DNA from: Candidatus Omnitrophota bacterium
Lineage (GTDB): Bacteria > Omnitrophota > Gorgyraeia > Zapsychrales > Zapsychraceae
Direction: 5' to 3'
NCBI GenBank assembly: GCA_020053475.1
Contig: JAGVNC010000028.1
Coordinates: 551-64,550 of the forward strand
DNA: 64,000 nt
The translations under genes and the position numbers were made by a program. Positions 8,376 to 64,000 of the stretch are shown here, piece by piece (the stretch's first letter is position 1; every line of letters begins with the position of its first letter). Under the pieces are notes generated by a model, which saw nothing but the letters and a program-made list of their open reading frames with translations, had not been told where the DNA came from and made no database searches.

Positions 8376-8412
8376 ATAACACCTCCATTTTAAAAAAGGC
8401 AATCATTCCGCC

Positions 8413-11667: not shown

Positions 11668-11811
11668 GAATAGAAAAATAAACGTCCGATCTCGATCGAT
11701 CAGGAAGGGCTAATCAGTCTATTGCGCAATGGCAAGAGAATACAAATAAAATCCTATAATAGTCTCATAAAATCAAGAATTCAATAAGAATTCTAAAATT
11801 TTTTTAAGTGT

Positions 11812-36991: not shown

Positions 36992-38344
36992 TTGAATGAG
37001 TTCATTATGAGTTTATCCAACGTTTGGAAAAAAGCCCAAGACATGATCAAAGAGAAGGTAGGGACAACCTCTTATGATACATGGTTCTCGACGCTGCAAG
37101 TGAAGGAACAATCCCCGCAAACTCTGGTGATCGAAACCCCGGATGAATTTTTTAAAAGTTGGATTGTCGAACATTATCAACCCTTTATTGATGAAACCAT
37201 CCATTCTTTGCACGAAGGCCCTATTAAGATTGAATATACGGTGAACACCGATTTAATCGAAAAAACCACTCAATCCCGCTTATCGAAATTTGAGCAAACA
37301 TTCGTTGAAGACAAATCGCCGAAAGCGGTATTAAATGCCCGCTTTACGTTTGAAAATTTTGTCATTGGGCCGTCTAATCGATTTGCGTGCGCCGCAGGAT
37401 TAGCCGTCGCCGAGGCCCCGGCCAAAGCATATAACCCTTTCTTTGTGTATGGCCAAGTTGGGTTAGGGAAAACCCATCTGATTCAAGCAATTACCCATAA
37501 AATCCGCCAGCTTAACCCCAGCGCAAAAATTTGTTATATTACCTCGGAGCGGTTCACGAACGAGCTGATTGAGGCGATTCGCCATCAATCCACGCCGAAC
37601 TTTCGGAAAAAATATCGGGAAATTGACGTTTTGCTCATTGATGACATTCATTTTATTGCCGGCAAAGAATCGACCCAGGAAGAATTCTTCCACACGTTTA
37701 ACGCGTTGCATGATAATCGAAAACAAATCATTATTACATCCGATCGGCCGCCCAAAGAAATCACCAACTTAGAAGAACGGCTGCGTTCACGCTTTGCCTG
37801 GGGACTGATTGCCGATGTTCAGCCTCCGGACTTTGAAACGCGCGTGGCAATCTTGCGTAAAAAAATCGAAAAAGAACCCATCCATGTTCCCGACGACGTT
37901 ATTTATTTTATTGCCGAACAGGTGCCCACCAATATTCGTGAACTAGAGGGGGCGTTGATTCGTGTGGCCGCTTATTCATTGTTGGAAGACAAGGTGATTT
38001 CGCTGGAGATGACCAAAGTCGTTCTCAAAGACATGGTGAAGGAGGCCACGAAAATTATTAGTATGGAGATGATCCAAAAATCCGTAGCCAACCATTACCA
38101 GATTTCATTGGCTGAGTTACGCGCCAAACGTCGAAATAAGAACATTGTTTTCCCCCGGCAAATGGCAATGTATTTAGCGCGCCAATTAACGAAAATGTCG
38201 TTACCGGAGATTGGGAACTCTTTTGGCGGGAAAGATCACACAACGGTCTTACATGCCTGTAAAAAGATTGAGCAAGAAATGTTGAAAAGTACCGACATTA
38301 AACACACGATCCTTGAGTTAACTTTAGTTATTAAGAACCCTTAG
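36992..38344 (+). CDS. dnaA: Chromosomal replication initiator DnaA, 450 aa. It may instead start at the Met at 37007.
   Basis: AAA+ Walker A GQVGLGKTHL and the C-terminal DnaA-box-binding domain. Confidence 0.95.
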   Translation: MNEFIMSLSNVWKKAQDMIKEKVGTTSYDTWFSTLQVKEQSPQTLVIETPDEFFKSWIVEHYQPFIDETIHSLHEGPIKIEYTVNTDLIEKTTQSRLSKFEQTFVEDKSPKAVLNARFTFENFVIGPSNRFACAAGLAVAEAPAKAYNPFFVYGQVGLGKTHLIQAITHKIRQLNPSAKICYITSERFTNELIEAIRHQSTPNFRKKYREIDVLLIDDIHFIAGKESTQEEFFHTFNALHDNRKQIIITSDRPPKEITNLEERLRSRFAWGLIADVQPPDFETRVAILRKKIEKEPIHVPDDVIYFIAEQVPTNIRELEGALIRVAAYSLLEDKVISLEMTKVVLKDMVKEATKIISMEMIQKSVANHYQISLAELRAKRRNKNIVFPRQMAMYLARQLTKMSLPEIGNSFGGKDHTTVLHACKKIEQEMLKSTDIKHTILELTLVIKNP

Positions 38345-38494
38345 TCTAGATATCCAAAGGCATTGAACAATTAAAAAGGTTGTAAGTTATTAGAAAAAAA
38401 TATTTTATATTTTTATTAGATTTATCCACAGGCCCTATTACTAAGGCTACTAATTGTTCTTATTAAAATATATAAGTAGGAGGTTGTTAATAAT
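38345..38494. other. AT-rich dnaA-dnaN intergenic region with a perfect DnaA box TTATCCACA at 38422-38430, a candidate DNA-unwinding element and second origin module.
   Basis: Read directly. The 150-nt segment is very AT-rich. Confidence 0.5.
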
Positions 38495-39583
38495 ATGAAA
38501 ATTAAGTGTTCTAAGGATGTTTTAATGCAGGGAGTTCAGGCTGTCCAAAACGTTGTTTCGCCAAAAATTACATTACCTATTCTCTCTAATATTCTTTTAG
38601 AAACAAAAAAGAATACATTGTATTTAACGGCGACCGACTTAGATATTGGGATCTCTTGTGAAATTCCTGTGGAAGTAATTCTGGATGGGGCGATTACGGT
38701 TCCCGCCAAGCGATTTAGCGATATTATTAAGGAGCTGCCTTCCGGAGATGTGGTGGTCCATGCGAAGAAAAATTATCAGGTGGATATTGAAGGCAATAAT
38801 TTTCGATTTAAATTAATCGGGATGCCTAAAGACGAGTTTCCTAAATTCCCCGAGTTTAAAGAAAAAGACATTATTTCTATTGAGCAAAAAACATTAAAGG
38901 AAATGTTGCGGTTAACAAGTTTTGCCGTATCCCACGAGGAATCACGCTATGTCCTCAATGGTGTTCTTTTAGAGGTAGCGGAAAATAAAATCCGCCTCGT
39001 GGCGACCGATGGGAGACGGTTGGCTAAAATTGAAAGAGTCCTTTCTCATCCAACATCCAAAGAGATCACGGTCATCATCCCCATTAAAGCCATTCAGGAA
39101 ATCAATCGTAATTTGAAAGACGAAGGCAATGTGATATTAAGTGTGGGGCTAAATCAAGTGTTGTTTGATGTTGGAGGGATTCTGATTGCCACGCGCATTA
39201 TTGAAGGGGAATTCCCTAATTATCAACAAGTCATCCCAAAATCGCAAGCGGAGAAAATCGTCATGAACCGCCAGGATTTTTTGTCATCGATCCGCCGGGC
39301 GAACCTATTGTCCACGCCGGATTTCCAGGCGGTTAAATTCGAAGTATTTAATAATAAAATGGTGATTTCCAAAACAACACCCGAGGTCGGGGAGTCGCGA
39401 GAAGAGATCCCCATCGAATACGGAGGCTCAGAGCTGGTGGTGGGGTTTAATCCGCATTTTATGATCGATGTGTTAAAAAATATCGAAGAAGAGCAAATTC
39501 ATTTGGAGCTATTGGGGACCGATAAGCCGGGCATCATCCGCCTCAAAGATTATTTATATCTGGCCTTGCCGATGCGTATTTAA
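38495..39583 (+). CDS. dnaN: DNA polymerase III beta sliding clamp, 362 aa.
   Basis: Three-domain beta-clamp sequence with RBS AGGAGG. Confidence 0.9.
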   Translation: MKIKCSKDVLMQGVQAVQNVVSPKITLPILSNILLETKKNTLYLTATDLDIGISCEIPVEVILDGAITVPAKRFSDIIKELPSGDVVVHAKKNYQVDIEGNNFRFKLIGMPKDEFPKFPEFKEKDIISIEQKTLKEMLRLTSFAVSHEESRYVLNGVLLEVAENKIRLVATDGRRLAKIERVLSHPTSKEITVIIPIKAIQEINRNLKDEGNVILSVGLNQVLFDVGGILIATRIIEGEFPNYQQVIPKSQAEKIVMNRQDFLSSIRRANLLSTPDFQAVKFEVFNNKMVISKTTPEVGESREEIPIEYGGSELVVGFNPHFMIDVLKNIEEEQIHLELLGTDKPGIIRLKDYLYLALPMRI

Positions 39584-39602
39584 CCTCAAATGTTGCATTG
39601 CA

Positions 39603-42463
<2,861 letters not shown>

Positions 42464-42580
42464 TGAAGCCCAGAGTTATGGAACGAGCAAAGCGAGTGAA
42501 CATAACTCTGTTGGCTGAATTAACCCCCAGCGTTTTGATTCGCATAGCGAATCAGCAGGGGGTCACTTAATGAAATATCG

Positions 42581-45031
42581 ATGCGTGATTTAACAGCCAA
42601 AGAAAAAATCATTCCTGTTTATATCGAAGAAGAAATGAAGAATTCCTATCTTTCTTATTCGATGAGTGTTATCGTCGGCCGCGCCCTCCCGGATGTGCGT
42701 GACGGCGTTAAGCCCGTGCATCGGCGCATTTTATATGCCATGAAGGAGTTGAACCTCGAGTACCCTAAAACATATAAAAAATGCGCCCGTATCGTCGGGG
42801 AAGTGTTGGGGAAATATCACCCTCACGGGGATGTGGCCGTGTACGATACGCTCGTTCGTCTCGTTCAGGACTTTTCGATGCGCTATCCATTGGTCGACGG
42901 GCAAGGAAACTTCGGGTCGATCGATGGGGACGCCGCCGCGGCCATGCGCTATACAGAGGCCCGGTTAGCGGCCATTTCTAGTGAAATGCTCGCCGATATC
43001 GATAAGGAAACCGTCAATTTTGTCCCCAATTTTGATTCGACGTTAGAAGAACCGAGCATTTTGCCGGCTGTTTTACCTAACCTTCTGGTCAATGGATCCA
43101 GCGGGATTGCCGTCGGGATGGCGACCAACATGCCGCCGCATAATTTAGGCGAAGTGGCGGACGCGATCGTTCAGTCCATCGACAATCCGGAAATGACGAT
43201 TAAAGATTTAAACAAAATCATCAAAGGCCCTGACTTTCCCACGGGCGGGATCATCTGTGGAAAAGAAGGGATCGTCGAGGCGTATACGACAGGGCGCGGG
43301 AAATTGACGGTGCGCGCGAAGGCGGCCATCGAGCGGCAGAAGGGCAATAAAGACAGCATCATCGTCACGGAAATTCCTTATCAAGTCAATAAGGCGAACT
43401 TGATTGAAGCCATCGCCGGGCTGGTCCAAGAGAAGAAGGTCGAGGGGATCACGGACATTCGCGACGAGTCCGACAAAGATGGGATCCGCGTGGTGATTGA
43501 ACTTCGCCGGGATGTTGAGGCCCAGATCATCCTTAATTATTTATATAAACACACTCAGCTGGAAATGACATTCGGCATCATTAATTTAGCTTTAGTCAAT
43601 AACAGCCCCAAGATCCTGAATCTTAAGCAACTCATTGAGCTTTATATTGATCATCGCCGGCTGGTGATCCGTCGGCGGACACAGTTTGATTTGGACCGTG
43701 CCCTCAAACGCGCCCACATTTTAGAAGGCTTGCGCATCGCGATTGATCATATCAACCAAATTATCAAAACGATCCGGAGCTCCAAGAGCGCGCCGCAAGC
43801 CAAAGTCGCGTTAATGAAAGAATTTGGCCTTTCCGAAATCCAAGCGCAAGCGATTCTGGAAATGCAACTCCAGCGATTGACAGGGTTGGAACGCGACAAA
43901 ATCGAAGAAGAATATCAACAGCTCCTGAAAGACATTGAGGAATTCCGCGCGATTTTAGCTTCCGAGAAACGAATTGAAGGGATTATCAAAGATGAATTGA
44001 CGGAAATCAAGAAGAAATATGCCGACGAGCGCCGGACGGAAATTGCCGGAAAAGCCGAAGAGATTGAAGTCGAGGACTTGATCGCCGAAGAAGATATGGC
44101 CATCACCATCAGCAACGCCGGGTATATCAAGCGTTTGGCGGTGAGCGCGTATCGCAAGCAAAAGCGCGGCGGGAAAGGCATCACGGCGATGGAAACCCGT
44201 GAAGAAGATTTTGTCACGCAGGTGTTTGTGGCGTCTTCCAAAGATTATTTGCTTGTTTTTTCAACCGAGGGGATTGTTCGTTGGCTGAAGGTTTACGAAA
44301 TCCCCGTCGCGTCGCGCACGTCCAAAGGAAAAAATATCGCCAGCCTTTTATCGATGGCGAACGACGAGCAAATCAGTTCGATTGTCGCTGTTAAAGAATT
44401 TTCAGACAACACATATATCGTCATGGCAACCTCTCAGGGCCTCGCGAAGAAAACAAAATTGTCCGCATTCAGTAATCCCCGGAAAGCCGGGATCGTTGGG
44501 ATCACCTTGGAAAAGAATGACCGCCTCATCGGGACCGCTCTTAGTAATGGCAAATATGATGTCTTTTTAGCGACGAAGGCTGGTAAATCATTGCGTTTTT
44601 CCGAGAAGAATATTCGGGACATGGGCCGTGGGGCCAAAGGCGTGCGTGGGATCAAGTTAGGCAAAGGCGATGAGGTCGTTAGCATGCAGGCTTTTTCTCC
44701 GGATATTGATAAAACGGGGAGCACGTTATTAGCTGTTACTTCATTAGGGTTTGCCAAACGTTCATCATTTAATGAATATCGGACACAATCGCGCGGCGGC
44801 AAAGGGATCATCAATGTGAAGGTCACGGAACGCAACGGCCATGTCGTCGGAGTGCTTTCGGTTATGCCTGATGATGAAGTCATGACAGTCACCAAACAAG
44901 GAATGATCGTGCGCTGTCCTCCCAGTGATGTCCGTCAAACCGGACGAAGCGCTGTCGGCGTGCGCTTGATTTCCCTCGACAAAGGCGATACGGTAAGCTC
45001 GGTGGCCAATGTTGTGGCCAAAGACGAATAA
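42581..45031 (+). CDS. gyrA: DNA gyrase subunit A, 816 aa.
   Basis: Active-site region [10 protein letters not shown] and a C-terminal beta-pinwheel. Confidence 0.95.
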
Positions 45032-53677: not shown

Positions 53678-54505
53678 ATGAATTTAGAGAATAAAAAACA
53701 AATCGCGACATTGTTGTTAGCGGTGGCACTTGGATTAGCCGCGGCTGTATTTACCAGCGATTATGTGACAAAGAGCATTAATAAACAAACGACCGCGTTG
53801 GCCAAAAATTATGACAAAAAGACGGAAGAGATCAAGAAAGAACTGGCCCTGACACAGAAGGCGTTGGATCAGTTGGCCAAAAATCAAAAAGTCTTGGCCG
53901 ACAGGCCTGCCCAGGTTGCCGCGGGAGGGCCGGAAAGGCAAATGACACCAGCGGGTGTCCTCTCCGCGCGAACACCTCCGGGGAAAAGAGCATTGACCAT
54001 TAATGTCGACACCCTTTCCGCCGTTGGAGGATTATTAAATCCCGGAGACCGCGTCGATATTATCGCTGATTTACAAATTCCCGATTCCCGTGATCCCAAA
54101 GCGGAACCGGATAAAGTCACATCCGTCTTGTTTCAAGATGTCCTTGTCCTTGCCGTAGGAACGAATTTTCAGCCGGTGACAACGGCCGAAGGGTATGATG
54201 CGCGTGCAAAAGCACGTTCGTTACAGATCACCCTGGCCCTAGACCCGGAAGAGGCTTCTTTAATCACGTTTTCCCAGAAATATGGCAAAATGCAACTAAC
54301 GTTGCGCCCACCGTCGGATGAGGGCGTGCAAAATATGGAAGTGGCTTCCTGGGATTCATTGGCCGATTTTGTCTTGGAAAGGCAAGGAACGGAGCTGATT
54401 GTCCCTAGGTCAAAGGCAAGAATTCAAACAGATGATACAGGGAAAAAAGAAACCAAAGACACAGAAGCCTTTATTCAAATTTTTAAGGGAGGCAAAGAGC
54501 AATAA
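53678..54505 (+). CDS. cpaB: Flp pilus assembly protein CpaB/RcpC (SAF domain), 275 aa.
   Basis: N-terminal TM helix and the SAF-like LTINVDTLSAVGGLLNPGDRVDIIADL. Confidence 0.75.
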   Translation: MNLENKKQIATLLLAVALGLAAAVFTSDYVTKSINKQTTALAKNYDKKTEEIKKELALTQKALDQLAKNQKVLADRPAQVAAGGPERQMTPAGVLSARTPPGKRALTINVDTLSAVGGLLNPGDRVDIIADLQIPDSRDPKAEPDKVTSVLFQDVLVLAVGTNFQPVTTAEGYDARAKARSLQITLALDPEEASLITFSQKYGKMQLTLRPPSDEGVQNMEVASWDSLADFVLERQGTELIVPRSKARIQTDDTGKKETKDTEAFIQIFKGGKEQ

Positions 54506-54508
54506 TCG

Positions 54509-56332
54509 ATGGAAACTAAACGAGCGTTTAAAACATTGGCTTTACTGAAGATGAGCGTTGTGATGGGCGCATTTTTCCTTTTGGGTTTATCCGCACCGGC
54601 CCAGGCTCGCGTTGATGCCACAACGAACGAAGTCAACCTTCTTATCGGGGAATTAGAAACCATCGACGTTAAATCATTAACGCGCCTTTCGATTACGGAC
54701 CCCAAAGTGGTTGACATTGTTGAGGCCAAAGAAAGCGAGATTCTGATTATTGCCAAAGCCATCGGGCAAAGCGCTTTATTTGTTTGGGATGAAAACGGGA
54801 AACGCACTGTTCTCGTTAACGTGGCGGCCCAAAACTTAGGATTAATCTCGCAGCGGCTTGAAAAACTTTTTTCCTCGGTCCATATCGACAATGTTACCGT
54901 TGAAGTTAATGGGAAAGAGGGAAAAGTTGTCTTGACCGGTCAAATTTTCGAAGATAAAAAAGATCAGTTTGATCAGGTCATTGCCCCCTTCAATCGAGAC
55001 ATCATTAATCTCGTCAAGGTAGAAAAATCCGAAGATTTAATTGAGGTGGATATCCAGATTACGGAATTAACGACAACCTTGACGAAAGCCATCGGCATCG
55101 ACTGGGCATCTTCCAGCACGGGGCCCTCGATCTCTGGGTTGGGCGCCGGCGGCCTTTTGGCGCCAACATTTTCTGAAAATGTGCCCAGCGTTGATGGATC
55201 AGTGGAAGATCTTTTTAAGATTGGGAATTTTCAACGCACGTATCAGTTGATTGCCATGATTAACGCCTTATTAGAAGAAGGGAAGGCGCGGATCCTCTCT
55301 AAACCGAAGCTTGTTGTCGTCAGCGGAGAAGAAGCCAGTTTTAATGTCGGAGGAGAAATTCCGATCCGTACGACAACCACATCACAAGGTTCTACCCAAG
55401 AAAATGTGACATTTAAGAAATTTGGGATAGGGATGACGATTACGCCTACAATTAAAAAAGGGAAAATTGATTTATTGATGGAAGTTGAAGTTAGCGATAT
55501 TGATTCTGCCAACAAGGTCGGGGACAATGTGGCCTTTACGACACGCAATGCCCAAACAAGATTATATTTAGACAACGGCCAGCCCATCGTCATTGCAGGA
55601 TTGATAAAGAAGCGCGAGTCGGAATTGGTCAAAAAAGTTCCATTTTTAGGAGAAATTCCTATCATTGGGATTTTGTTTAGAAGCAAGTCGACTCCGTCAG
55701 CCAATGAAGACCAGGAACTAGTTATTTCTCTGACGCCGTTAATCCTCAATTCAGAATATAATTCTGCGATGATATCGAAAATTACTCCCCCATTGGAAGT
55801 AGCCGATGAGCCTCAAAAAGAACCAATGGACGATGATGATGTGGTTGCGGATGATGCTGATGATGCTGATGATGTGGATGCCGATGCGGATTTGGATGTG
55901 GATGAAACTGAAGAACCGTTGAGTTGGGATGACGAAACAATGCAAATGGATCCTAGTCCTGCGGTGGCGGCAAATGAAAGTCAATCTTCTACACAAATTA
56001 CTCCTGAAGAAAAATCTTCAGAGAATGATGGCTTTCCTGCGGGGATGAAAGATTATATTCAGGCGATTCAACAGCAGATTTCTAGCACGATCCAATATCC
56101 TCCCGAAGCGGAAGAATATGGTTGGGAGGGAACTGTCAGGCTAGGATTGCTCATCTTACACGACGGGACATTAGCGCTTGCTTCCATCAAGGAGTCCTCA
56201 GGGCATAAAATTTTTGACGAATACGCTCTTAATACGGCCAAAGAATTGGCCCCTTATTTAAGTTTCCCTCCTGAAACAGACCTGCAGGAATTAAATGTTA
56301 CGATTCCCATTGTGTATACCGTGGCCCGATAA
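54509..56332 (+). CDS. cpaC: Tad-type secretin (CpaC/RcpA family), 607 aa, with a polyacidic linker and a C-terminal TonB_C-like domain.
   Basis: Signal peptide and a secretin core (ARILSKPKLVVVSGEEASFNVGGEIPI...LTPLILNS). The acidic run DDDDVVADDADDADDVDADADLDVDETEE is followed by YPPEAEEYGWEGTVRLGLLILHDGTL...SSGHKIFDEYALNTAKE, which matches the TonB C-terminal consensus. Confidence 0.75.
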   Translation: METKRAFKTLALLKMSVVMGAFFLLGLSAPAQARVDATTNEVNLLIGELETIDVKSLTRLSITDPKVVDIVEAKESEILIIAKAIGQSALFVWDENGKRTVLVNVAAQNLGLISQRLEKLFSSVHIDNVTVEVNGKEGKVVLTGQIFEDKKDQFDQVIAPFNRDIINLVKVEKSEDLIEVDIQITELTTTLTKAIGIDWASSSTGPSISGLGAGGLLAPTFSENVPSVDGSVEDLFKIGNFQRTYQLIAMINALLEEGKARILSKPKLVVVSGEEASFNVGGEIPIRTTTTSQGSTQENVTFKKFGIGMTITPTIKKGKIDLLMEVEVSDIDSANKVGDNVAFTTRNAQTRLYLDNGQPIVIAGLIKKRESELVKKVPFLGEIPIIGILFRSKSTPSANEDQELVISLTPLILNSEYNSAMISKITPPLEVADEPQKEPMDDDDVVADDADDADDVDADADLDVDETEEPLSWDDETMQMDPSPAVAANESQSSTQITPEEKSSENDGFPAGMKDYIQAIQQQISSTIQYPPEAEEYGWEGTVRLGLLILHDGTLALASIKESSGHKIFDEYALNTAKELAPYLSFPPETDLQELNVTIPIVYTVAR

Positions 56333-56444
56333 TTCGGATAAATGGGAATTTTCCAATTAGGCAAAAATAAGAAATTATGTTATGATGAAAAACACAGTTT
56401 TTTATCTTTTAAGCCGAACCATTGAATAAGACATCAATCATCTG

Positions 56445-58607
56445 ATGCAGGCAAAAACGATAACAATTTTTAGCAATAAAGGCGGTGTCGGCAAAACATT
56501 TGTCACCGTCAATACCGGCACAGCCATGGCCGTGGCTAACCACAAAGTCTTGATTTTAGATTTTGACTTTCAGGCAGGTCAAGATATGGCGCGGATGTTG
56601 AACATCGCCCCCAAACATGCCTTGGTCGATATTTTCCCCGTCTTGGAATCTTCCGATGATCCGCAGTTGATCTACAAATACGTTTCCGTTCATTCCAGCG
56701 GCGTGCATTTTTTGCCAGCCGTAAAAAATACCCGGCAGATCGGGCATATCACGCCCGACAACATCAAGCCTTTCTTAAAGAAAATAGCCTCCGCTTATGA
56801 TTTTATTCTTATTGACGCGGGAAAATCTTTTAGTGAAACGTTGATAACGGTTTTGGATTATTCCAACCTGATCCTGTTGGTCGCGACGCCGGATATTTTG
56901 GCGGTTTATAACATTAAGTGGTGTTTAGACGTTTTGCAGAGCCTGCAGTTTCCTAACAAAATGGTTAAGCTCGTATTAAACCGTTCCGAAAGCCGCGGGA
57001 GCGTGGCTTGGCAAGAGGTCCGGTCAGCGTTGCCTTGTGAAATTCTGACTCATATCCCTTCCGACGGAAAAACAGTCGGGATGGCTTTAAACCGGGGAAT
57101 TCCTTGCGTGGTCGATGCGCCTAAAAGCCGTGTGGCTGAATCGTTCTTTCGCCTGGCTTCACTTTTCGAAAAAGATGATATGTTTGTTGCGGCGACGGAG
57201 GTTGAGAAACAAAGGACAACGGATGAATTTGCCAAACCCGGGGCTTTTTGGGAAAAATTCGGCATCACCCAAGCCATGGGAATGTCGTTGCCGGGGATTT
57301 CTTTTGCCACGGAAGAAGATGAGGTCATCGTGTTAAAAAGGAAAATTCACGAGAAGCTCGTCAAGCGGCTCAATTTAGACGGGATTACGCCCGAAGCGTT
57401 AAACGATCCGATTGCCGCCCAAGGGATCAAGAGAAATGCCGAAGAGGTCGTGGCCAATATGTTGACGGAAGAGGCGGGCGGGATGCTGGCCGCGCACGAG
57501 GAACGCGTTCGGCTGGTCAAGGATATTGTCAATGAAGCGTTAGGCCTCGGCCCGCTGGAAGATTTTTTGGCGGATCCGGACGTGACCGATATTATGGTCA
57601 ACAGCCGTGATCAGATTTATGTGGAAAAAAGCGGCAAACTTATTTTGACGAATAAAAAATTTATTTCTGATGAAAAAATGCGGTCCGTCATTGAGCGTAT
57701 CATTGCGCCCTTGGGCCGTCGCATCGATGAATCGACACCCATGGTGGATGCGCGCCTTCCTGACGGATCCCGGATCAATGCCATTATCCCCCCTTTGTCC
57801 TTAAATGGCCCGATGATTACCATTCGTAAATTCGGCCAGGAACGTTTGACCGCTGAAGATCTTCAGCACCGATTTCATTCGCTCAATCAAGCCATGCGCG
57901 ATTTTTTGCAAGCTTGTGTTTTAGGCAGAAAGAACATCATTGTTTCCGGTGGAACCGGCGCCGGGAAAACGACATTATTGAATGTCATTTCGGAATTTAT
58001 TCCAGACAACGAACGGTTGATTACCATTGAGGACGCCGCCGAATTGAAGCTGAAAAAAAGCCATTGGGCGAGATTAGAGTCGCGCCCGTCGAACATCGAG
58101 GGCCGCGGACAGGTCACGATCCGCGATTTGTTTATTAACAGTTTGCGGATGCGCCCGGACAGGATTGTCATCGGCGAATGCCGCGGGGCGGAGGTGTTGG
58201 ACATGCTTCAGGCCATGAACACGGGCCACGACGGATCATTAACAACGCTGCACGCCAACTCCACCAAGGACGTTTTAGTCCGGATGCATTCGATGATCCT
58301 GTTAAGCGGGATTGAATTGCCTGTGCGCGCCATCAATGAAATGGTGGCCTCGGCCATTGATATCATTGTCCATGTCGCTCGGTTTTCTGACGGAACCCGG
58401 AAAATAACGGGAATTTCTGAAGTGACGGGGCTCAGTAAAGATTTTCAGTGCGAGCTTGAGGACGTTTTTGTTTTCAAGCAAACAGGCCTCGACAGCGATG
58501 GCAAAATTTTGGGGAGTTATCAGCCGACAGGATATATTCCCATTTGCTATGAAGATTTCGCGACGCGCGGATTACCGATCGATCGAAGTATTTTCTTGAA
58601 GGCTTAA
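56445..58607 (+). CDS. Fused TadZ/CpaE-like ParA-family ATPase (N-terminal) and TadA/CpaF secretion ATPase (C-terminal), 720 aa.
   Basis: N-terminal deviant Walker A FSNKGGVGKTFVTVN. C-terminal GGTGAGKTTLLN plus T2SSE-family motifs (His box TLHANS). Confidence 0.75.
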   Translation: MQAKTITIFSNKGGVGKTFVTVNTGTAMAVANHKVLILDFDFQAGQDMARMLNIAPKHALVDIFPVLESSDDPQLIYKYVSVHSSGVHFLPAVKNTRQIGHITPDNIKPFLKKIASAYDFILIDAGKSFSETLITVLDYSNLILLVATPDILAVYNIKWCLDVLQSLQFPNKMVKLVLNRSESRGSVAWQEVRSALPCEILTHIPSDGKTVGMALNRGIPCVVDAPKSRVAESFFRLASLFEKDDMFVAATEVEKQRTTDEFAKPGAFWEKFGITQAMGMSLPGISFATEEDEVIVLKRKIHEKLVKRLNLDGITPEALNDPIAAQGIKRNAEEVVANMLTEEAGGMLAAHEERVRLVKDIVNEALGLGPLEDFLADPDVTDIMVNSRDQIYVEKSGKLILTNKKFISDEKMRSVIERIIAPLGRRIDESTPMVDARLPDGSRINAIIPPLSLNGPMITIRKFGQERLTAEDLQHRFHSLNQAMRDFLQACVLGRKNIIVSGGTGAGKTTLLNVISEFIPDNERLITIEDAAELKLKKSHWARLESRPSNIEGRGQVTIRDLFINSLRMRPDRIVIGECRGAEVLDMLQAMNTGHDGSLTTLHANSTKDVLVRMHSMILLSGIELPVRAINEMVASAIDIIVHVARFSDGTRKITGISEVTGLSKDFQCELEDVFVFKQTGLDSDGKILGSYQPTGYIPICYEDFATRGLPIDRSIFLKA

Positions 58608-58615
58608 CCCCATCA

Positions 58616-58960
58616 ATGCCGCAGATTTTTAATAAAACAAAGAATACACTCGTTGCTTCCCAGGCCAAAATGGCCCAAAATTTCCTTGCCCGCATGGTCG
58701 GCCTTCTCAACCGGTCTTCGTTGTCCCCCCAAGAAGCCCTGATTATTCCCCATTGCCAATCGATTCATATGTTCTTTATGCGTTTTCCCATTGATGTTAT
58801 TTTCGTGGATAGCGAAAATAAAGTTGTGCATCTTCTAAAGAATATCCGGCCTTTTCAGCTCAGTCCCATCATTTTTTCTTCCTTCTATGCCATCGAAATG
58901 GCTGTGGGCGGCATTGAAACGTCGCGCACAGCGGTTGGCGATTTCCTCTTGCTAGAATAA
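58616..58960 (+). CDS. DUF192 (COG1430) protein, 114 aa.
   Basis: IHMFFMRFPIDVIFVD is the characteristic DUF192 core. Confidence 0.55.
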   Translation: MPQIFNKTKNTLVASQAKMAQNFLARMVGLLNRSSLSPQEALIIPHCQSIHMFFMRFPIDVIFVDSENKVVHLLKNIRPFQLSPIIFSSFYAIEMAVGGIETSRTAVGDFLLLE

Positions 58961-59041
58961 TCCTTCGGTAAAGTGATCGATGGACATTAAAATTGTGCTA
59001 TACTGTATACGAAATGTCCAATCTGAAATAGTTAGGCTCCC

Positions 59042-60898
59042 ATGGGTGTTGTTTATAAACTAAAAGACGAAGTTCTTCAATTCATTATCCAGCAAAAAAA
59101 GGACATCCCTTCCTTGGGCGTGCGCCAATTGGCCGGCCTTGTCAGCACCAAATTCCACCTTCAAGTTTCGAAATCTTCCGTTAGCAATGTTTTAAAAGGC
59201 GCTCATTTAAGCAGCGGGGTGGGAAGAAGGGCCACGCAAGACCGGAAACAAAAAAAATTTAAAATCCCGACGCAGAAGAAGAAAGAGATTTCGGAGCACA
59301 TGCAAAAAATGGCCCTGGGCCGGGAGCCGGTGCTTTCCAAGGCCACGATCAGCGAAAAACCCGTTGAACACATGGCGCCCTCAGCTGAACCTGTCGAAGA
59401 GGTTCTGGCGAATGAGGATGAAAGCGAGATTTTGGAGAAAGAAATTCTTGTTGTCCCGCCAGTCCCGTCGGAGAAATCCCCAGGAATTGAAGCGGCCGAT
59501 CCCTTGAGGGAAGTTTCTTCTCTCCCGCCAACGCAATCTTCCAAAGATGTTTTTTATCAGCATGTTCGGGAGATTCAAGCGCGGCGCGTCGCGCAACAGG
59601 GGAAGCTTTATCAAGGGCTGGGATGTATTTTTCTAAAAGCCGCAGAATGGGAAGGGAATCAACACCCTTGGGATCAATTATTCGCTCAAGAATCAGGAGC
59701 GCTTTCGGATAATTTTTCGGGTACATTTTCCGCCCTCGCGATCGAAGCGTTTTTAACCAAAGAAGGGGCGAGCCGTAAGGACATGTTCAAAGAAGGAATT
59801 TTTGTCCTTAATGATTTAGACCCTGCAGCGCCACAGGCACAACATCGTTTTGATCAAATCGCCGGACTTGTCATCCCTGAGCCTGTTGTTTGGGAATACA
59901 CTGACCATCTTCAACAATTTTTTGCTCAAGCAGACCTGTTTCGTTGGGAATTAGAAGATGCAACGGAATTTTATACCGATCCAGGAGCGACTTTTTTAGA
60001 TGAGCAGGTTTCTTCGGGCGGGCTCGCCTTTCCTTTAAACAAGGCCTTGACGATTTTGTCCCGAGAGATCATTAGCAATAATCATCCGCTGATTTTATGC
60101 CAAGCCCCCGGCCAGCAGGCCATTGACGCGTGTTTCGATGATTTTTTAGGCGCGTTCGAAGGCCACTCGAATAAATCCATTGTTGCGCTCACCGTGCTCA
60201 ATGAGCACCAAGAAGAAGTCGCGATGTTTAACATCATTCCTCGTCGACGCCGAAATTTTATTTGCGGGCTGTGGCCGCACCTGAAGGAATTTAAAGAATT
60301 AACAAAGACCGTCAAGTGGGCCGCGAAACAACCCTTTTATGTTGAGCATGCGGATCGAATTGTCTATTCTGCCGCCACCCAAACAGATTATTTTGCGTCA
60401 CATTTATCGGAGAACCCCCGGCCCATGCGCTTGTTAACGCTTTGGAACGATGAACAAGCAGAGCCCTGCATGAGCATTCTGTGTAATGACATGGACATCG
60501 AGCCGCAAAAAATCCTGGATTTATATACAACGCGATGGCCTTATCTGGAAAGGCCTGCCTTGTTTAAAGAGGCTGGGGAGCCGCTACCTTTGATCCAAAA
60601 TGCGGATCAACATCATTCATTAGAATCGTTGGCGGGAAAATTTGGGGACATCCTCCACCAATACTGTTTAAGAAAGTTCTTTCCTTCATATCGGCGCTTA
60701 CCTTCGGCATCCTTAATTGAAAATATTTATGAAATGCCGGGATATGTGATCAAAACCCCTCAATCTTATCAAATTTTGTTAAAAACAAAGGGGAATGCGG
60801 AAAATCGCTTAGAAGAGCTTAAGGATGCTGTTCAGCGGCTAAATGAACACGGCATTGAGACAGGGGACGGGAAGAAGGTTTCAATCCTTATAATATAA
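59042..60898 (+). CDS. Large hypothetical protein, 618 aa. It has an N-terminal HTH-like segment, a Pro/Glu/Lys-rich linker and a C-terminal region containing the motif YTTRWPYLERP. An upstream TGcTATACT extended -10 lies inside the palindrome GGACATT-N24-AATGTCC.
   Basis: Read directly. No confident family was assigned. Confidence 0.45.
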   Translation: MGVVYKLKDEVLQFIIQQKKDIPSLGVRQLAGLVSTKFHLQVSKSSVSNVLKGAHLSSGVGRRATQDRKQKKFKIPTQKKKEISEHMQKMALGREPVLSKATISEKPVEHMAPSAEPVEEVLANEDESEILEKEILVVPPVPSEKSPGIEAADPLREVSSLPPTQSSKDVFYQHVREIQARRVAQQGKLYQGLGCIFLKAAEWEGNQHPWDQLFAQESGALSDNFSGTFSALAIEAFLTKEGASRKDMFKEGIFVLNDLDPAAPQAQHRFDQIAGLVIPEPVVWEYTDHLQQFFAQADLFRWELEDATEFYTDPGATFLDEQVSSGGLAFPLNKALTILSREIISNNHPLILCQAPGQQAIDACFDDFLGAFEGHSNKSIVALTVLNEHQEEVAMFNIIPRRRRNFICGLWPHLKEFKELTKTVKWAAKQPFYVEHADRIVYSAATQTDYFASHLSENPRPMRLLTLWNDEQAEPCMSILCNDMDIEPQKILDLYTTRWPYLERPALFKEAGEPLPLIQNADQHHSLESLAGKFGDILHQYCLRKFFPSYRRLPSASLIENIYEMPGYVIKTPQSYQILLKTKGNAENRLEELKDAVQRLNEHGIETGDGKKVSILII

Positions 60899-60923
60899 AT
60901 AGATAGTATTTATTAAACCATGC

Positions 60924-60953
60924 TTGACACTAAATAAAAAAATATGTTATACT
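60924..60953 (+). promoter_or_regulatory. Promoter of the Flp pilin gene array: -35 TTGACA (60924-60929), 18-nt spacer, -10 TATACT (60948-60953). It is followed by a structured leader of about 300 nt.
   Basis: Read directly. Confidence 0.55.
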
Positions 60954-61256
60954 CCTTCTATATCATAAGCCACGGGAAAGTTAGTAAAGAAAGAGGCAAT
61001 CTAGGACATTTGTAAATGTCTGAAACATCAATGGATATGATAAGCCTCCACGATTCCTGTGGGGGTTTTTGTTTGTAGGCCGTTCAACAATTTTTAAAAT
61101 GCTTATTACACCGCAAGGTGTCTTAATCCTTGATGGAACTACTTAAGTCAGGGAGGCAAAGCCCTAACAAGGTTTTACTATAGAGGCCCTTAAGGCTTCA
61201 TCCTCATTGTTTGAGGAGGGGTAACAATCATCTGTTCAACACATAAGGACAAGGCG

Positions 61257-61427
61257 ATGAAAGGCTTTTTAAGAATAATGGACCATTTAGACCGCAAAGG
61301 TCAAAACTTGATCGAATATGCCTTCGTCGCCTCTATCGTGATCGCTGCTGTTTTTGTCATGAGTACTTATGTGTTTCGTTCTGTCCAATCCACGCAACAG
61401 ATGATTCAAAAAGAAGCAATCAAGTAA
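61257..61427 (+). CDS. flp: Flp-family prepilin, 56 aa (leader MKGFLRIMDHLDRKG, then QNLIEY).
   Basis: G/XXXXEY processing motif followed by a 20-aa hydrophobic segment. Confidence 0.75.
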   Translation: MKGFLRIMDHLDRKGQNLIEYAFVASIVIAAVFVMSTYVFRSVQSTQQMIQKEAIK

Positions 61428-61511
61428 ACCCTTTAAAGAAATTCTTTAAACGGGGGACTCTTTGTCGTTAGAGCATCAACAAAAGAGAGAATATCTTCAA
61501 GGAGGAATCTA

Positions 61512-61742
61512 ATGTTAAGACGTAACATAAAAACGCCCGCGCTAAAGAAAAAGAAGGGGCAATCGACGCTGGAATATATCATCCTTGTAGCTGGCGTCAT
61601 TGCTGTGTTGATTGTTTTCTTGGCGCCCGGCGGTATTTTCCAGACATCGTTTAATTCGATCCTGTCATCTGGGACGCAAGGCGGAGTGCAGCTGGCGAAC
61701 GCGTTAAAGCTTTCGCACGGGGGCAACGCCGATGCATTTTAA
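61512..61742 (+). CDS. Flp-type prepilin paralog, 76 aa.
   Basis: KKKKG-QSTLEY motif plus a hydrophobic segment. RBS AAGGAGG. Confidence 0.7.
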   Translation: MLRRNIKTPALKKKKGQSTLEYIILVAGVIAVLIVFLAPGGIFQTSFNSILSSGTQGGVQLANALKLSHGGNADAF

Positions 61743-61762
61743 CATTGTGGAGGGAAAAACAA

Positions 61763-62122
61763 ATGTTTAGAAAATTGTTAAAAAATAAAAAAGCGCAAAA
61801 TACCCTCGAGTATGCGATCCTGATCTCTTTGGTCGTCGCGGGGATTGTTGCCATGCAAACGTATGCCCAACGAGCCTTGCAAGCGAGAGTTCGTGACGCG
61901 AGCTCGTATTTGGCGAATCAAACCGGAGCCTTAGGGAATACGCTTCAGTATGAACCTTATTATCTAAGTACCAACTACGCAATCGAGCGGGACGAATCAG
62001 AAACCCAAATACTGGATAACGTCACAACCTTACAACAGGTGAATTCTACTCGTAAACGAGCTGCGGGTGGGTTCCAGAGTTCTGATTACAGTACGGCATT
62101 CGGTATTGTCAATGGCATCTAA
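61763..62122 (+). CDS. Flp-type prepilin paralog with an extended C-terminal domain, about 119 aa. ATG start after RBS GGAGGG. The ORF track starts at TTG 61745.
   Basis: KNKKA-QNTLEY motif. The C-terminal region is paralogous to the 62656 gene (shared YEPYY). Confidence 0.65.
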   Translation: MFRKLLKNKKAQNTLEYAILISLVVAGIVAMQTYAQRALQARVRDASSYLANQTGALGNTLQYEPYYLSTNYAIERDESETQILDNVTTLQQVNSTRKRAAGGFQSSDYSTAFGIVNGI

Positions 62123-62188
62123 GGAAAAGCAAGCCAAGCAGCTTGTTTTCCTAACATTGAGCCATTTTAAATTGAGGAGGATCATTCA

Positions 62189-62518
62189 ATGTTGAGGCTT
62201 TTGAATAAACGAAGAAAAAAAGGGCAAAGTACGCTGGAATATGCCATTCTGATTATTATCATCCTCGGTGCGCTGATGTCCATCCAGATATATATCAAAC
62301 GCGGGATTCAAGGAAGACTGAAAAGCGCGACAGATGATATCGGGGACCAGTTCTCTCCGGGGAATACCAATGTAGTGAAAATTATGCACACCGTCAGTAA
62401 TTCTGTCGATACGTTTGCGTTCGGTAAATCCAAATCCACATTAACAGGTAAGGGGGAAATAACGACCGAACAAATGAATTCTGACATCATGATTGTTAAT
62501 CAGGAATTCTGGCAATAA
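62189..62518 (+). CDS. Flp-type prepilin paralog with an extended C-terminal domain, 109 aa.
   Basis: RRKKG-QSTLEY motif. Paralogous to the 63437 gene (shared YIKRGIQGRLK...GDQFSP). RBS GAGGAGG. Confidence 0.7.
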   Translation: MLRLLNKRRKKGQSTLEYAILIIIILGALMSIQIYIKRGIQGRLKSATDDIGDQFSPGNTNVVKIMHTVSNSVDTFAFGKSKSTLTGKGEITTEQMNSDIMIVNQEFWQ

Positions 62519-62655
62519 GCCCGGCTTTTGATGACAAGATATGGCTTGCTTGGGAGAGAGGTTCTTTTCGGGCAGGCCATATTTTTTTAGCGGGCTCGCA
62601 TTCGCAAGAACGTTAGAACGTTATCATGAGAATGCGGGTTTAATCTTTCTTCATT

Positions 62656-63036
62656 ATGTTAAAGCTTCTAACAAATAGACGCGCTCAGGCTATGATGGGC
62701 GAATATGTCCTTGTTTTTGTGATTGTTTTAAGCGTCATGGGGGCGATGACGGTTTATTTCAAACGCGCCATCCAGGCCCGCATGTACGACGCCCGTAACG
62801 CAATGGTCGGGACCGTCTATGAACGGACGAACGAGATCAATTATGTGGGGGAAATCGGGGTCGCGTACGAGCCTTATTACACCAACACCACGTCATCTGT
62901 GCAGAGGACATCAGAATCAGAAACAAGGTTGAAGCCTGGGCTGACGACGGGGATTTTTAGTAAAACAATTAACGAAACGACAGCTGTTCAGACAGAAAGC
63001 ACGACCGCTCCGCCTAAAGATGTGGACTTGTTTTAA
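62656..63036 (+). CDS. Flp-type prepilin-like paralog, 126 aa, with the variant motif RRAQAMMGEY.
   Basis: Hydrophobic segment after the GEY motif, and a Thr/Ser-rich C-terminus. Confidence 0.55.
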   Translation: MLKLLTNRRAQAMMGEYVLVFVIVLSVMGAMTVYFKRAIQARMYDARNAMVGTVYERTNEINYVGEIGVAYEPYYTNTTSSVQRTSESETRLKPGLTTGIFSKTINETTAVQTESTTAPPKDVDLF

Positions 63037-63037
63037 T

Positions 63038-63391
63038 ATGTTGAGAAAAAGATCATTTCGCCATCAGAGGAAGACACAAAACGCCCAATCCATGCTTGAA
63101 TATGTCATTGTCATTGGCGTTATCGTCACGGTTCTGTTCACGATGAACCCTTTGCTGAAGCGCAGCATCCAAGGGCTTATTAAATTCGTCGCGGACCAAG
63201 TTGGTAATCAAGAGAACGCGGAACAAGATTTCGATGAGATGGGGCATTTACAATCTCAACATGTCAAAACGCAGGCGGACATTCATCGGACAGAAATTGA
63301 TTTTTTGCGCGTGATGAATTATATTTCCGATGAAGTGGTTGTTTCGGAAAGTAACACGCAGATTAATGCGGGATTTACTCAGACCGATTAA
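63038..63391 (+). CDS. Flp-type prepilin-like paralog, about 117 aa, with motif KTQNAQSMLEY. The start is uncertain; an alternative ATG lies at 63020.
   Basis: Motif plus a hydrophobic segment. Confidence 0.5.
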   Translation: MLRKRSFRHQRKTQNAQSMLEYVIVIGVIVTVLFTMNPLLKRSIQGLIKFVADQVGNQENAEQDFDEMGHLQSQHVKTQADIHRTEIDFLRVMNYISDEVVVSESNTQINAGFTQTD

Positions 63392-63436
63392 ATGGTTAAA
63401 ATTTGCTGTGGCATGGATGATAGGGAGACTTAGCAT

Positions 63437-63758
63437 GAAACTGATTGGCCGCAAAAAACGAAGAGGGCAAAGCGTCATCGAATACGTCATTCTGATCACT
63501 ATCTTATTGGGTGCTTTCTTGGCCATTGGAACTTATTTTAAGCGCGGCGTTCAGGGGCGCTGGAAAGAGGCTGTCGACGGATTCGGTGATCAATACGATC
63601 CCCGCGCTGCCGACACGAACATTAAACACAGCATTTTGTCAAATACCAATACGACGATTTTGGCGATGAATAGTGTCGGCGGCTTCTGGACATCGCGCAC
63701 TGATGAATCAAAAACGACTGAAAAAAGGACGGGATATATGTCGTCGGGAGCGTATTGA
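63437..63758 (+). CDS. Flp-type prepilin paralog, about 107 aa. Start MKLIGRKKRRG-QSVIEY with RBS GGGAG.
   Basis: G/XXXXEY motif. Paralogous to the 62189 gene. Confidence 0.65.
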
Positions 63759-63880
63759 TTGAGGTTACAGAAGGTTACGAGAGGGTACGGGATGTTTCGT
63801 AAAGCCATCAGCCCTCACGCAACTTCATGTAACATTACGCAACCTTCCGCAACATCATGTACCCCGCGTAACGTTTAAAT

Positions 63881-64000
63881 ATGTCTTTTTTTAAACAACA
63901 TAAGTTCGCTTCTACCCGCGCCCAAACCGCCATCGAATTGGCGATTTTTGGCGCCATTTTAATCTTTGTGGTCGGTCTTATTGTGAATTCAGCCATGAAC
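63881..64000 (+). CDS. TadE/Flp-like prepilin, 5' partial; the gene continues past the window end.
   Basis: MSFFKQHKFASTRAQTAIELAIFGAILIFVVGLIV, a TadE-like N-terminal motif. Confidence 0.5.
   Translation, partial: MSFFKQHKFASTRAQTAIELAIFGAILIFVVGLIVNSAMN

Follow-up and report, generated by a model that had tools for sequence, protein, structure and literature searches.

The pilin gene block of an Omnitrophota Tad pilus locus as a likely fixed paralogue repertoire with proposed two-tier expression

Introduction

The end of a 64,000-nucleotide (nt) stretch of Candidatus Omnitrophota DNA (contig JAGVNC010000028.1, positions 551 to 64,550 of the forward strand; hereafter, the window) holds a tandem array of open reading frames (ORFs), which we consider likely to be the pilin gene block of the Tad (type IVc) pilus locus of Omnitrophota, with an old and fixed repertoire of paralogues that is expressed in two tiers. 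An earlier note, made from the sequence, had described the array as Flp/Tad-type prepilin genes, and this description was borne out by the Tad locus in which the array lies, by Pfam matches of orthologues, and by profile-profile links among its members. Omnitrophota are widespread, uncultivated, ultra-small bacteria that are thought to be predators or parasites, and the phylum has few conserved organelles, the Tad pilus among them, that are candidates for contact with a host.

The Tad system of Omnitrophota is already known. A Tad complex has been described in the phylum at the level of TadB/C and RcpA, and it was reported to be expressed in the predatory V. archaeovorus (PMC10066038). In the searchable literature we found no paper that dissects the Tad pilin genes of Omnitrophota, and no description of the fixed 7 + 4 gene repertoire, the Flp-derived pilins with their extensions, the operon in two tiers and its leader RNA, or the anti-sigma pilin module that are presented below.

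Results

An array of ORFs with a shared prepilin motif

The plus strand at 61257-64000 carries seven complete ORFs (O1 to O7) and an eighth (O8) that is cut off by the window end, as judged from the ORF listing and the raw sequence (Table 1). All eight run from a Lys/Arg-rich leader through Gly or Ala, Gln, and three further residues to Glu-Tyr and a hydrophobic helix. The motif has its standard form, G/A|xxxxE(Y), in O1 to O4, O6, and O7, is one residue longer in O5, and has EL for EY in O8; the earlier statement that every ORF begins with a basic leader and that most continue with a processing motif and a helix is confirmed, with one extra residue in O5. Gln stands directly after the Gly or Ala in 8/8 and is invariant at +1. 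A strict version of the pattern, [GA]Q-x(3,4)-E[YL] followed by 12 small or hydrophobic residues, was found 8 times when the whole 64-kb window was translated in six frames, each time inside the array. Antisense ORFs listed in the array region were set aside as by-products of the coding strand.

Cleavage after Gly15 would leave O1 with a mature length of 41 amino acids (aa), and O2 would have about 60 aa, which places both in the size range of the small, helix-only Flp pilins (about 40-60 aa). The mature forms of O3 to O7, at about 95-115 aa, exceed this range. The view that only the first ORF is of classical Flp size is correct for O1 but overlooks O2, which at 76 aa comes near that size too. 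Two paralogous pairs recognized from the sequence (62189 with 63437 and 61763 with 62656) are real, O4 and O7 being 43% identical (E = 3e-23) and O3 and O5 36% identical (E = 2e-15), within a range of 23-43% among the window paralogues. The correct start of O7 is 63435 and not 63437.

Table 1. Coordinates of the array, its regulatory elements, the Tad genes upstream, and module-bearing proteins of other loci. Positions are those of the window unless a locus number (L) is given.
Feature	Location	Strand	Remarks
O1	61257..61427	+	56 aa, short Flp-type prepilin; motif KG|QNLIEY
O2	61512..61742	+	76 aa, short prepilin, archaeal-style class III signal peptide
O3	61763..62122	+	119 aa, extended Flp-derived prepilin; N-terminal 46 residues near-invariant, plus QYEPYY motif (alignment A6)
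O4	62189..62518	+	109 aa, extended Flp-derived prepilin; motif KRGIQGRLKSATDDIGDQ (alignment A4)
O5	62656..63036	+	126 aa, prepilin paralogue of O3; carries YEPYY
O6	63038..63391	+	117 aa, prepilin paralogue (alignment A7)
O7	63435..63758	+	107 aa, prepilin paralogue of O4 (alignment A8)
O8, partial	63881..64000 (window end)	+	40 aa visible; RAQTAIEL and hydrophobic helix
Sigma-70-type promoter, extended -10	60924..60953	+	TTGACA-N18-TATACT, TG before -10
Terminator-like hairpin and T-run, upstream half of leader	61042..61075	+	
Conserved leader element	61180..61256	+	ATAGAG; P1 (61186-61190 with 61218-61222); J12 (61191-61200, conserved single-stranded); P2 hairpin (61201-61206 with 61212-61217); tail into O1 Shine-Dalgarno
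Intrinsic-terminator-like hairpin and T-run, O4-O5 spacer	62538..62588	+	
rcpC/cpaB homologue	53678..54505	+	First gene of Tad locus; Pfam RcpC 7.6e-25
Tad secretin (rcpA/cpaC-like)	54509..56332	+	Secretin 5.4e-42, T2SS-T3SS_pil_N 3.8e-10, TonB_C 2.4e-13
TadZ/CpaE-like ParA/MinD-type domain fused to TadA/CpaF ATPase	56445..58607	+	720-aa protein
DUF192 protein	58616..58960	+	Pfam DUF192 1.5e-17; position conserved (syntenic)
618-aa protein	59042..60898	+	No Pfam family; between ATPase and pilin genes
zf-HC2 anti-sigma protein with vWA/YfbK_C	L034:9632-11680, L035:9713-11845, L037:3793-5307		
zf-HC2 macroglobulin-like protein	L039:2009-7144		
DUF4349 protein	L042:9926-10834		
Giant proteins	L038:7130-15004, L040, L041		About 2500-2700 aa

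The array is a conserved part of a Tad locus

Related loci were collected by a scan with O4 in one genome per species, which gave 41 loci, and by identity look-ups, which added three more; gene order was mapped by tblastn. About 27 species-level genomes share one order: RcpC, secretin, TadZ-CpaF, DUF192, the protein without a Pfam family, O1 to O7, O8 to O11, TadB, and TadC. Upstream of the array, the window itself contains RcpC, secretin, TadZ, and TadA/CpaF. TadB and TadC are seen in relatives only, since the window ends before them; there, two T2SSF (TadB/C) genes follow the array. The genes beyond O7 in relatives encode proteins of about 430-600 aa (O8), about 75-105 aa (O9), about 1000-1600 aa and Cys-rich (O10), and about 110-170 aa (O11). 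The pilin block is thus a fixed repertoire of eleven members: seven prepilins derived from Flp and four pilin-like proteins of larger size.

The sequence past the window edge was taken from the contig of locus L044, which is 95.7% identical in DNA and encodes O8 (514 aa), O9 (99 aa), O10 (1184 aa), O11 (115 aa), tadB, and tadC. The O8 fragment of the window is 95% identical to the start of the 514-aa protein. The eighth ORF is hence no small pilin, and the window shows the N-terminus of a protein of about 514 aa.

Every complete ORF of the window has its own orthologue, with identities of 30-80% per orthologue, and the ratio of nonsynonymous to synonymous divergence (dN/dS), calculated for close genome pairs, was 0.02-0.3 for every orthologue, with one low-divergence outlier at 0.58. 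The presence of syntenic orthologues in about 27 genomes and the dN/dS values therefore identify the seven complete ORFs as real protein-coding genes. Because the orthologues are one-to-one and in order, and dN/dS is low, the duplications must be ancient, fixed, and under purifying selection. The "duplication and diversification" of subunits put forward in the earlier note accordingly gives way to a set in which each paralogue has an orthologue in the same order across the phylum.

A few loci depart from this order. One (L015) has a second O2-O3-O4 set (9293-11780), one (L020) lacks O6 and O7, and one (L031) has an O3-like gene where O5 is expected. In two divergent loci (L028 and L030, about 7860-10650) there are only several O3/O4/O7-like copies; tadB/C follow after a long stretch that has no assignment.

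Within the array, conservation is highest in O3 and O4. O4 has more than 1,000 homologues, and those among 120 listed were about 66-81% identical except for two near-identical copies; O3 has about a thousand. The named O3/O4 homologues belong to Candidatus Omnitrophota, save one O3 homologue labelled Nitrospirota, and the source annotations of some homologues, including those of O3, read "Flp pilus assembly pilin Flp" or "UPF0333." Some records of metagenome-assembled genomes carry the label Planctomycetes.

Promoter, leader RNA, and terminator indicate two transcription units

O1 is the first gene downstream of a sigma-70-type promoter with 11/12 consensus matches (60924-60953), and in 28/32 sources a TTGACA-N(16-19)-TATACT-like pattern precedes O1 at a distance of 160-430 nt. 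The promoter and the leader of about 300 nt that follows it occupy 60924-61256. The upstream half of the leader has a terminator-like hairpin with a T-run (61042-61075). Its stem, AAGCCTCC..GGAGGCTTT, recurs together with a T-run in several other loci that have long leaders, and loci with short leaders lack it; 15/28 leaders have a hairpin with an energy of -9 kcal/mol or stronger and a T-run behind it. The hairpin of the window may act as an attenuator or as a riboswitch platform, or it may be a small RNA of its own or the end of one. The motif AAGCCACGGGRAAA (60968-60985) in the leader is common to the window and locus L003.

The last 75 nt or so of the leader hold a conserved element with two helices (P1 and P2), a conserved joining strand (J12), and single-stranded flanking motifs (ATAGAG, GAATTC-like, and AAGGATTATCTGTTG-like). 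A per-sequence helix parse found P1 and P2 in 31 leaders, and the parse score exceeded the dinucleotide-shuffle mean in 29/29 sequences tested (mean z = 2.4). Compensatory changes were seen at 12/12 pairs, and pairing stood at 92.9% versus 64.8% in shuffled sequences, with 0/500 shuffles as high; these pair counts come from a helix-fitted, N-padded alignment, which favours structure by construction and inflates the percentage paired. MAFFT alignment followed by RNAalifold predicted no structure in the leader, because the variable hairpin misaligns. Two further contacts, a long-range AATAGA/TCTGTT pairing and a GAATTC/GGATT pseudoknot, were considered by eye and dropped, as their covariation was inconsistent. 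The leader had no Rfam match at gathering thresholds or in a permissive E-value scan. The element covaries across about 30 Omnitrophota loci and is a candidate for a new RNA that regulates the pilin operon in cis.

The O4-O5 spacer contains a strong hairpin and T-run resembling an intrinsic terminator. The fold of 62519-62600 has an energy of -36.1 kcal/mol (z = -4.46), and 0/200 shuffles were as stable. All 23 O4-O5 spacers examined in relatives have a hairpin and T-run, at -22 kcal/mol or stronger in 21/23. Median gene gaps are 50-61 nt within O1 to O4, 141 nt between O4 and O5, and 17-28 nt within O5 to O8. Good Shine-Dalgarno sequences precede O1 to O4 and O7, and none precedes O5, O6, or O8; the ATG of O6 lies 1 nt past the O5 stop codon, and O6 is probably translationally coupled to O5. 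In close genome pairs, synonymous divergence (dS) is lower in O1 to O4 than in O5 to O8. Together, the promoter, the terminator, the spacing, the Shine-Dalgarno sequences, and the dS pattern point to two units, O1 to O4 upstream and O5 to tadC downstream, and this anatomy would indicate strong expression of O1 to O4 and weak expression of O5 to tadC.

In two close pairs, L005/L008 and L010/L013, dS rises along the array; the values for L005/L008 are 0.03 for O1, 0.26 for O4, 0.84 for O7, and 1.57 for O8. Such a rise suggests that codons are constrained in the proximal genes, that the distal, tip-like genes recombine, or that both hold.

Family assignment and predicted structure

None of the window proteins O1 to O8 matched the Pfam family Flp_Fap (PF04964) at E <= 1. 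Among orthologues, Flp_Fap matched O1 in 31/32 cases (best E = 6.5e-7), O2 in 12/32, O3 in 5/29, and O4 in 2/32. Window O2 scored 29.0 bits against Class_IIIsignal (PF04021; curated cut-off, 23.7) and is the sole window ORF above a threshold; 32/32 O2 orthologues match the same family, for which window O4 (16.7 bits) and O7 (12.4 bits) are sub-threshold. Orthologues of O3 and O4 give scattered sub-threshold matches to Class_IIIsignal, Flp_Fap, DUF4244, or DUF3290. The search with Flp and TadE models that had been called for gave Flp_Fap matches for nearly all O1 orthologues and left window O1 and O3 to O7 under every Pfam threshold. That Flp and class III matches are mixed fits the relation of Tad and archaeal Epd pili, which are sister systems (PMC6668835). 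Judged by their motifs, these pilins join an Epd-like Gln at +1 with a Flp-like Glu5-Tyr6.

DUF3290 matches 25/29 O3 orthologues sub-threshold over most of their length (best E = 3.4e-5); window O3 scores 22.6 bits against a cut-off of 31.3.

TadE (PF07811) matched neither the O8 fragment nor any of 22 full-length O8 orthologues at E <= 0.1. The TadE-like character once assigned to the last ORF is confined to its motif, as 0/22 full-length O8 orthologues match TadE or another Pfam family. A joint scan of O9, O10, and O11, which was not split by group, gave weak TadE matches for 8/39 sequences (best E = 6.3e-5), including O9 of locus L001; O9 lies outside the window.

Profile-profile comparison with hhalign linked O1 to O7 and O11 mutually, with probabilities of 91-99.9% over the N-terminal 28-94 columns (98.5% for O3 and 98.4% for O6 versus O1). 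O8 and O9 were weakly linked to this set, and O10 was not linked. Profile searches of PDB sequences with O1, O2, and O4 returned N-terminal matches of marginal strength, to Geopilin (E = 0.05) and to Caulobacter PilA 8u1k (E = 3.3), or noise.

AlphaFold2, run on alignments of the window proteins with database homologues, modelled O4 with a helix at residues 15-54 and four strands at 63-97 (mean predicted local distance difference test score [pLDDT], 68) and O3 with a helix over residues 2-54 and, at 74-99, a beta hairpin (mean pLDDT, 71); the beta parts are of modest confidence. The O4 model had no significant match among solved structures. The predicted shape of O3 and O4 suggests a very small type IV pilin, between the helix-only Flp and full pilins.

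Proposed assembly of the pilus

On the reading that we prefer, in which the array is the pilin block of a Tad pilus, a prepilin peptidase encoded elsewhere would cleave each leader after Gly or Ala and expose Gln at +1, Glu at +5, and Tyr at +6, and the hydrophobic helix would pack in the filament core. In the first tier, the sigma-70 promoter and structured leader would drive O1 to O4, up to the strong terminator after O4. O1, the classical helix-only Flp subunit, is the candidate main fibre subunit, and O2 would be a second short subunit. O3 and O4, which are Flp-derived and are predicted to have an amphipathic helix segment and a small beta domain in addition, are probably abundant and either part of the fibre or associated with it. 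The second tier, reached via read-through or a weaker promoter, would comprise the tightly packed and partly translationally coupled O5 to O8 and continue, as in relatives, through O9, O10, O11, tadB, and tadC. Its products are probably minor pilins of low abundance, which would prime assembly and make up the tip, with the large O8 and the very large O10 taking a TadE/TadG-like role; tip complexes of TadE/F/G-like minor pilins are established for the Kil Tad pilus of Myxococcus (PMC12075869). The earlier suggestion of minor pilins or tip components is plausible in this refined form, from O5 onward; the antigenic variation offered beside it is not (see below).

Several observations weigh against this model. 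A prepilin peptidase gene was not found in the 64-kb window, for which only a screen of ORFs with multiple transmembrane (TM) segments was used, nor in the related loci of 20 kb, including the sequence downstream of tadC in six relatives. The cleavage motif of O5 has a one-residue insertion (A-QAMMG-EY, with 5 residues between A and EY), which O5 orthologues have as well. Window O1 has no Pfam match of any kind, and window O3 to O7 have only sub-threshold scores for Class_IIIsignal, Flp_Fap, DUF4244, or DUF3290. Orthologues of O8 (0/22 full-length) and of O10 have no Pfam family, and the TadE/TadG-like role that the two proteins would play is proposed from their size, position, and N-terminal motif. 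Likewise, the putative division into major and minor subunits is drawn from operon anatomy.

The same genes might instead specify a pseudopilus or a secretion or killing device, akin to the type II secretion system (T2SS) or to Kil, in which O1 to O7 form a short, dynamic pseudopilus and the many pilin-like proteins load effectors or deliver them to prey or host cells, with the weight on contact-dependent attack. Such a device would suit the proposed life of Omnitrophota as predators or parasites, whose RcpA groups with that of predatory bacteria (PMC10066038), and it has a precedent in Kil, where one major and 14 minor pilins provide interchangeable tips (PMC12075869). The very large, Cys-rich O10 and O8 are also kept in the operon. 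However, we saw no effector, toxin, or type III secretion system (T3SS)-like genes in the locus, and each locus has a single set of large tip-like genes and not several interchangeable ones. We regard this device as an unlikely explanation of the block.

Segments of O3 and O4 recur in anti-sigma factors and other envelope proteins

Nine loci fetched by similarity to O4 are not Tad loci. In eight of them, one protein carries a TM helix, after which come the O4 segment (..Y-x-K/Q-R-G-L/I-Q-G-R-L-K-S-A-T-D-D-I-G-D-Q-F/Y-S..) and, next in line, the O3 segment (..Q-Y-E-P-Y-Y-L-x-T-x-Y..). In the ninth (L043), a 112-aa ORF has an O4-like segment only. The prepilin cleavage motif is absent from all nine proteins. 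Four are zf-HC2 anti-sigma proteins (Table 1), with Pfam zf-HC2 matches in L037 and L039 and an anti-sigma N-terminus seen in the sequence only in L034 and L035. Genes for extracytoplasmic function (ECF) sigma factors lie immediately upstream of all four, and window O3 and O4 match the L035 anti-sigma protein with E values of 7e-14 and 7e-16, respectively. Because the segments recur in envelope proteins, we conclude that envelope sensors reuse the helix and juxtamembrane part of O3/O4 as a module. Its presence there suggests that ECF signalling may be connected with the pilin pool or with the Tad machine.

From these data it could be argued that O3 and O4, possibly with O5 and O7, reside in the membrane and serve mainly in signalling or docking with the module-bearing proteins, and not as fibre subunits. 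In favour of this are the serial recurrence of the two segments after a TM helix in non-pilin proteins, the strength of the matches together with the ECF sigma genes beside the four anti-sigma proteins, and the high conservation of O3 and O4 within the array. Nevertheless, both proteins retain the full prepilin leader and cleavage motif, as well as Glu5/Tyr6, which Tad pilins that assemble typically have, and they share a transcription unit with the Flp-like O1; signalling and fibre roles are, moreover, compatible with each other. We therefore think it very unlikely that O3 and O4 act mainly outside the fibre.

A bolder proposal goes further. The O3/O4 segments would be a phylum-specific docking module that Omnitrophota have copied into ECF anti-sigma factors (in the order zf-HC2, TM helix, O4 segment, O3 segment, vWA/YfbK_C), the anti-sigma factors would be pilin mimics that couple pilus assembly or retraction to an ECF regulon, and the O1-O4 unit, headed by a new structured leader RNA, may give a Tad fibre of mixed subunits. 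We offer this only tentatively and think it improbable. Regulators tied to a filament machine or to a membrane subunit pool are familiar from the FlgM/sigma-28 export checkpoint and from intramembrane sensing by PilA-PilS. If the proposal were true, the anti-sigma mimics would be engaged by the Tad platform or by the pool of pilins in the membrane, for example upon contact with host or prey, and a checkpoint of the FlgM or PilA-PilS kind would have been built from a pilin module. The likeness to those systems lies in ECF anti-sigma factors that, by sequence, carry the O4 and O3 pilin helix module. The differences are that the anti-sigma proteins here have no prepilin cleavage motif, that their N-terminal domain is cytoplasmic, and that their genes lie outside the window and outside the Tad locus.

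The array has no signs of phase or antigenic variation

The check for phase-variation repeats or invertible segments that the earlier note had called for was run on the array and disclosed no such elements: there were no inverted repeats of the invertible-segment kind, no homopolymers longer than 7, and no tandem repeats except one 17-nt repeat in a spacer. On the repeat and homopolymer scans, we reject slipped-strand tracts, invertible segments, and antigenic variation, and the fixed orthologues and purifying selection likewise speak against the antigenic variation that had been suggested. That the array consists of recently duplicated, interchangeable pilin cassettes, switched or diversified to alter the pilus surface, is scarcely credible, because the tandem arrangement, the variable and Ser/Thr-rich C-termini, and the extra O2-O3-O4 copy in L015 are outweighed by one-to-one orthologues at the same position in about 27 genomes, dN/dS of 0.02-0.3, a paralogue identity of merely 23-43%, and the outcome of these scans.

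Comparison with known systems

The Tad loci of Aggregatibacter actinomycetemcomitans (flp-1, flp-2, tadV, rcpCAB, and tadZABCDEFG) and Caulobacter (pilA, cpaA-F, and the minor pilins CpaJ/K/L) resemble the Omnitrophota locus in having a secretin, RcpC, TadZ, TadA/CpaF, and TadB plus TadC, short G|xxxxEY prepilins, more than one flp-like gene, and larger pseudopilins in the operon. They differ in the size of the repertoire, with 1-3 flp genes and tadE/F/G there and seven EY-type prepilins and four pilin-like genes here. Gln at +1 is invariant in the Omnitrophota array, and O3 to O7 have an extension of 50-90 aa, with beta structure predicted in the models of O3 and O4. Also unlike the known loci, TadZ is fused to the ATPase, the secretin carries TonB_C, neither tadV nor tadD was seen in the locus, and the TadE and TadG models of Pfam match none of the large members.

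The Kil system of Myxococcus xanthus, with its major pilin KilP and the minor pilins KilK, KilL1-4, KilM1-4, KilN1-4, and KilO, shares with the present locus a Tad-type machine, a predatory setting, many pilin-like proteins of small, medium, and very large size, and a proposed tip; in addition, tips of different lineages are not linked by sequence searches (PMC12075869). In contrast, Kil has four interchangeable LMN tip clusters scattered over the genome and works with a needleless T3SS (PMC12075869), whereas the Omnitrophota set is single, ordered, and contained in one operon with no T3SS genes nearby.

The archaeal EppA-dependent Epd pilins (PF04021, formerly DUF361) likewise have Gln at +1 and Glu at +5 (QxSxExxxL), a pattern for which O2 scores above the family cut-off, and they too occur as several adjacent short pilin paralogues in a sister system of Tad (PMC6668835). 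Unlike in Epd, the host is bacterial (6S RNA, DnaA, DnaN, DciA, and GyrBA), a secretin and RcpC are present, and the pilins have Tyr at +6, the hallmark of bacterial Flp. The range of Tad pilins is thereby widened by archaeal-type Gln at +1 in all members beside a bacterial Glu5-Tyr6, and by the small beta extension predicted for O3 and O4, which would stand between helix-only Flp and full type IV pilins.

Type IVa pili (PilA with FimU-PilVWXE) and T2SS (GspG with GspH-K) offer a parallel in layout, as they combine one or a few abundant subunits with a conserved set of 4-5 low-abundance pilins for priming and capping, and the two classes are expressed at different levels owing to a terminator behind the gene or genes for the major pilin. 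However, they use N-methylated Phe or Met at +1, full-size globular heads, and different machines, and their minor pilins are usually encoded in a separate operon. The two-tier layout gives concrete targets for proteomics, cryo-electron microscopy, and structure prediction of fibre and tip, and the covarying leader RNA and the reuse of the pilin module in anti-sigma factors are testable leads on the regulation of host contact.

Upstream genes and chromosomal position

The rcpC/cpaB homologue is syntenic in related loci. The TonB_C domain of the secretin lies at its C-terminus, and in the TadZ-CpaF fusion Pfam places AAA_31/ParA/CbiA at residues 4-238 and T2SSE at residues 366-646; the fusion is 53-76% identical in relatives. 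Both domain combinations recur in L001 and L002, two syntenic loci with Pfam annotation, and full-length matches in the remaining loci fit them. The 618-aa protein has matches of 21-30% identity at the same position in about 30 loci, and its N-terminus looks helix-turn-helix-like by eye. The DUF192 protein too is kept in place in about 30 loci. The 618-aa protein is possibly a locus-specific regulator or assembly factor.

The window is a stretch of bacterial chromosome, with dnaA, dnaN, dciA, gyrB, gyrA, 6S RNA, and four tRNAs. The Tad locus lies about 9-17 kb from the dnaA-dnaN-dciA-gyrB-gyrA cluster (36992-45031 versus 53678-64000) and hence near the replication origin, a position like that reported for V. 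archaeovorus, whose Tad locus is also near the chromosome start (CP019384.1 12382-29832) (PMC10066038). Just past tadC, the L044 contig carries a gene for a Y1-type transposase (PF01797) on the opposite strand (L044:12620-13106).

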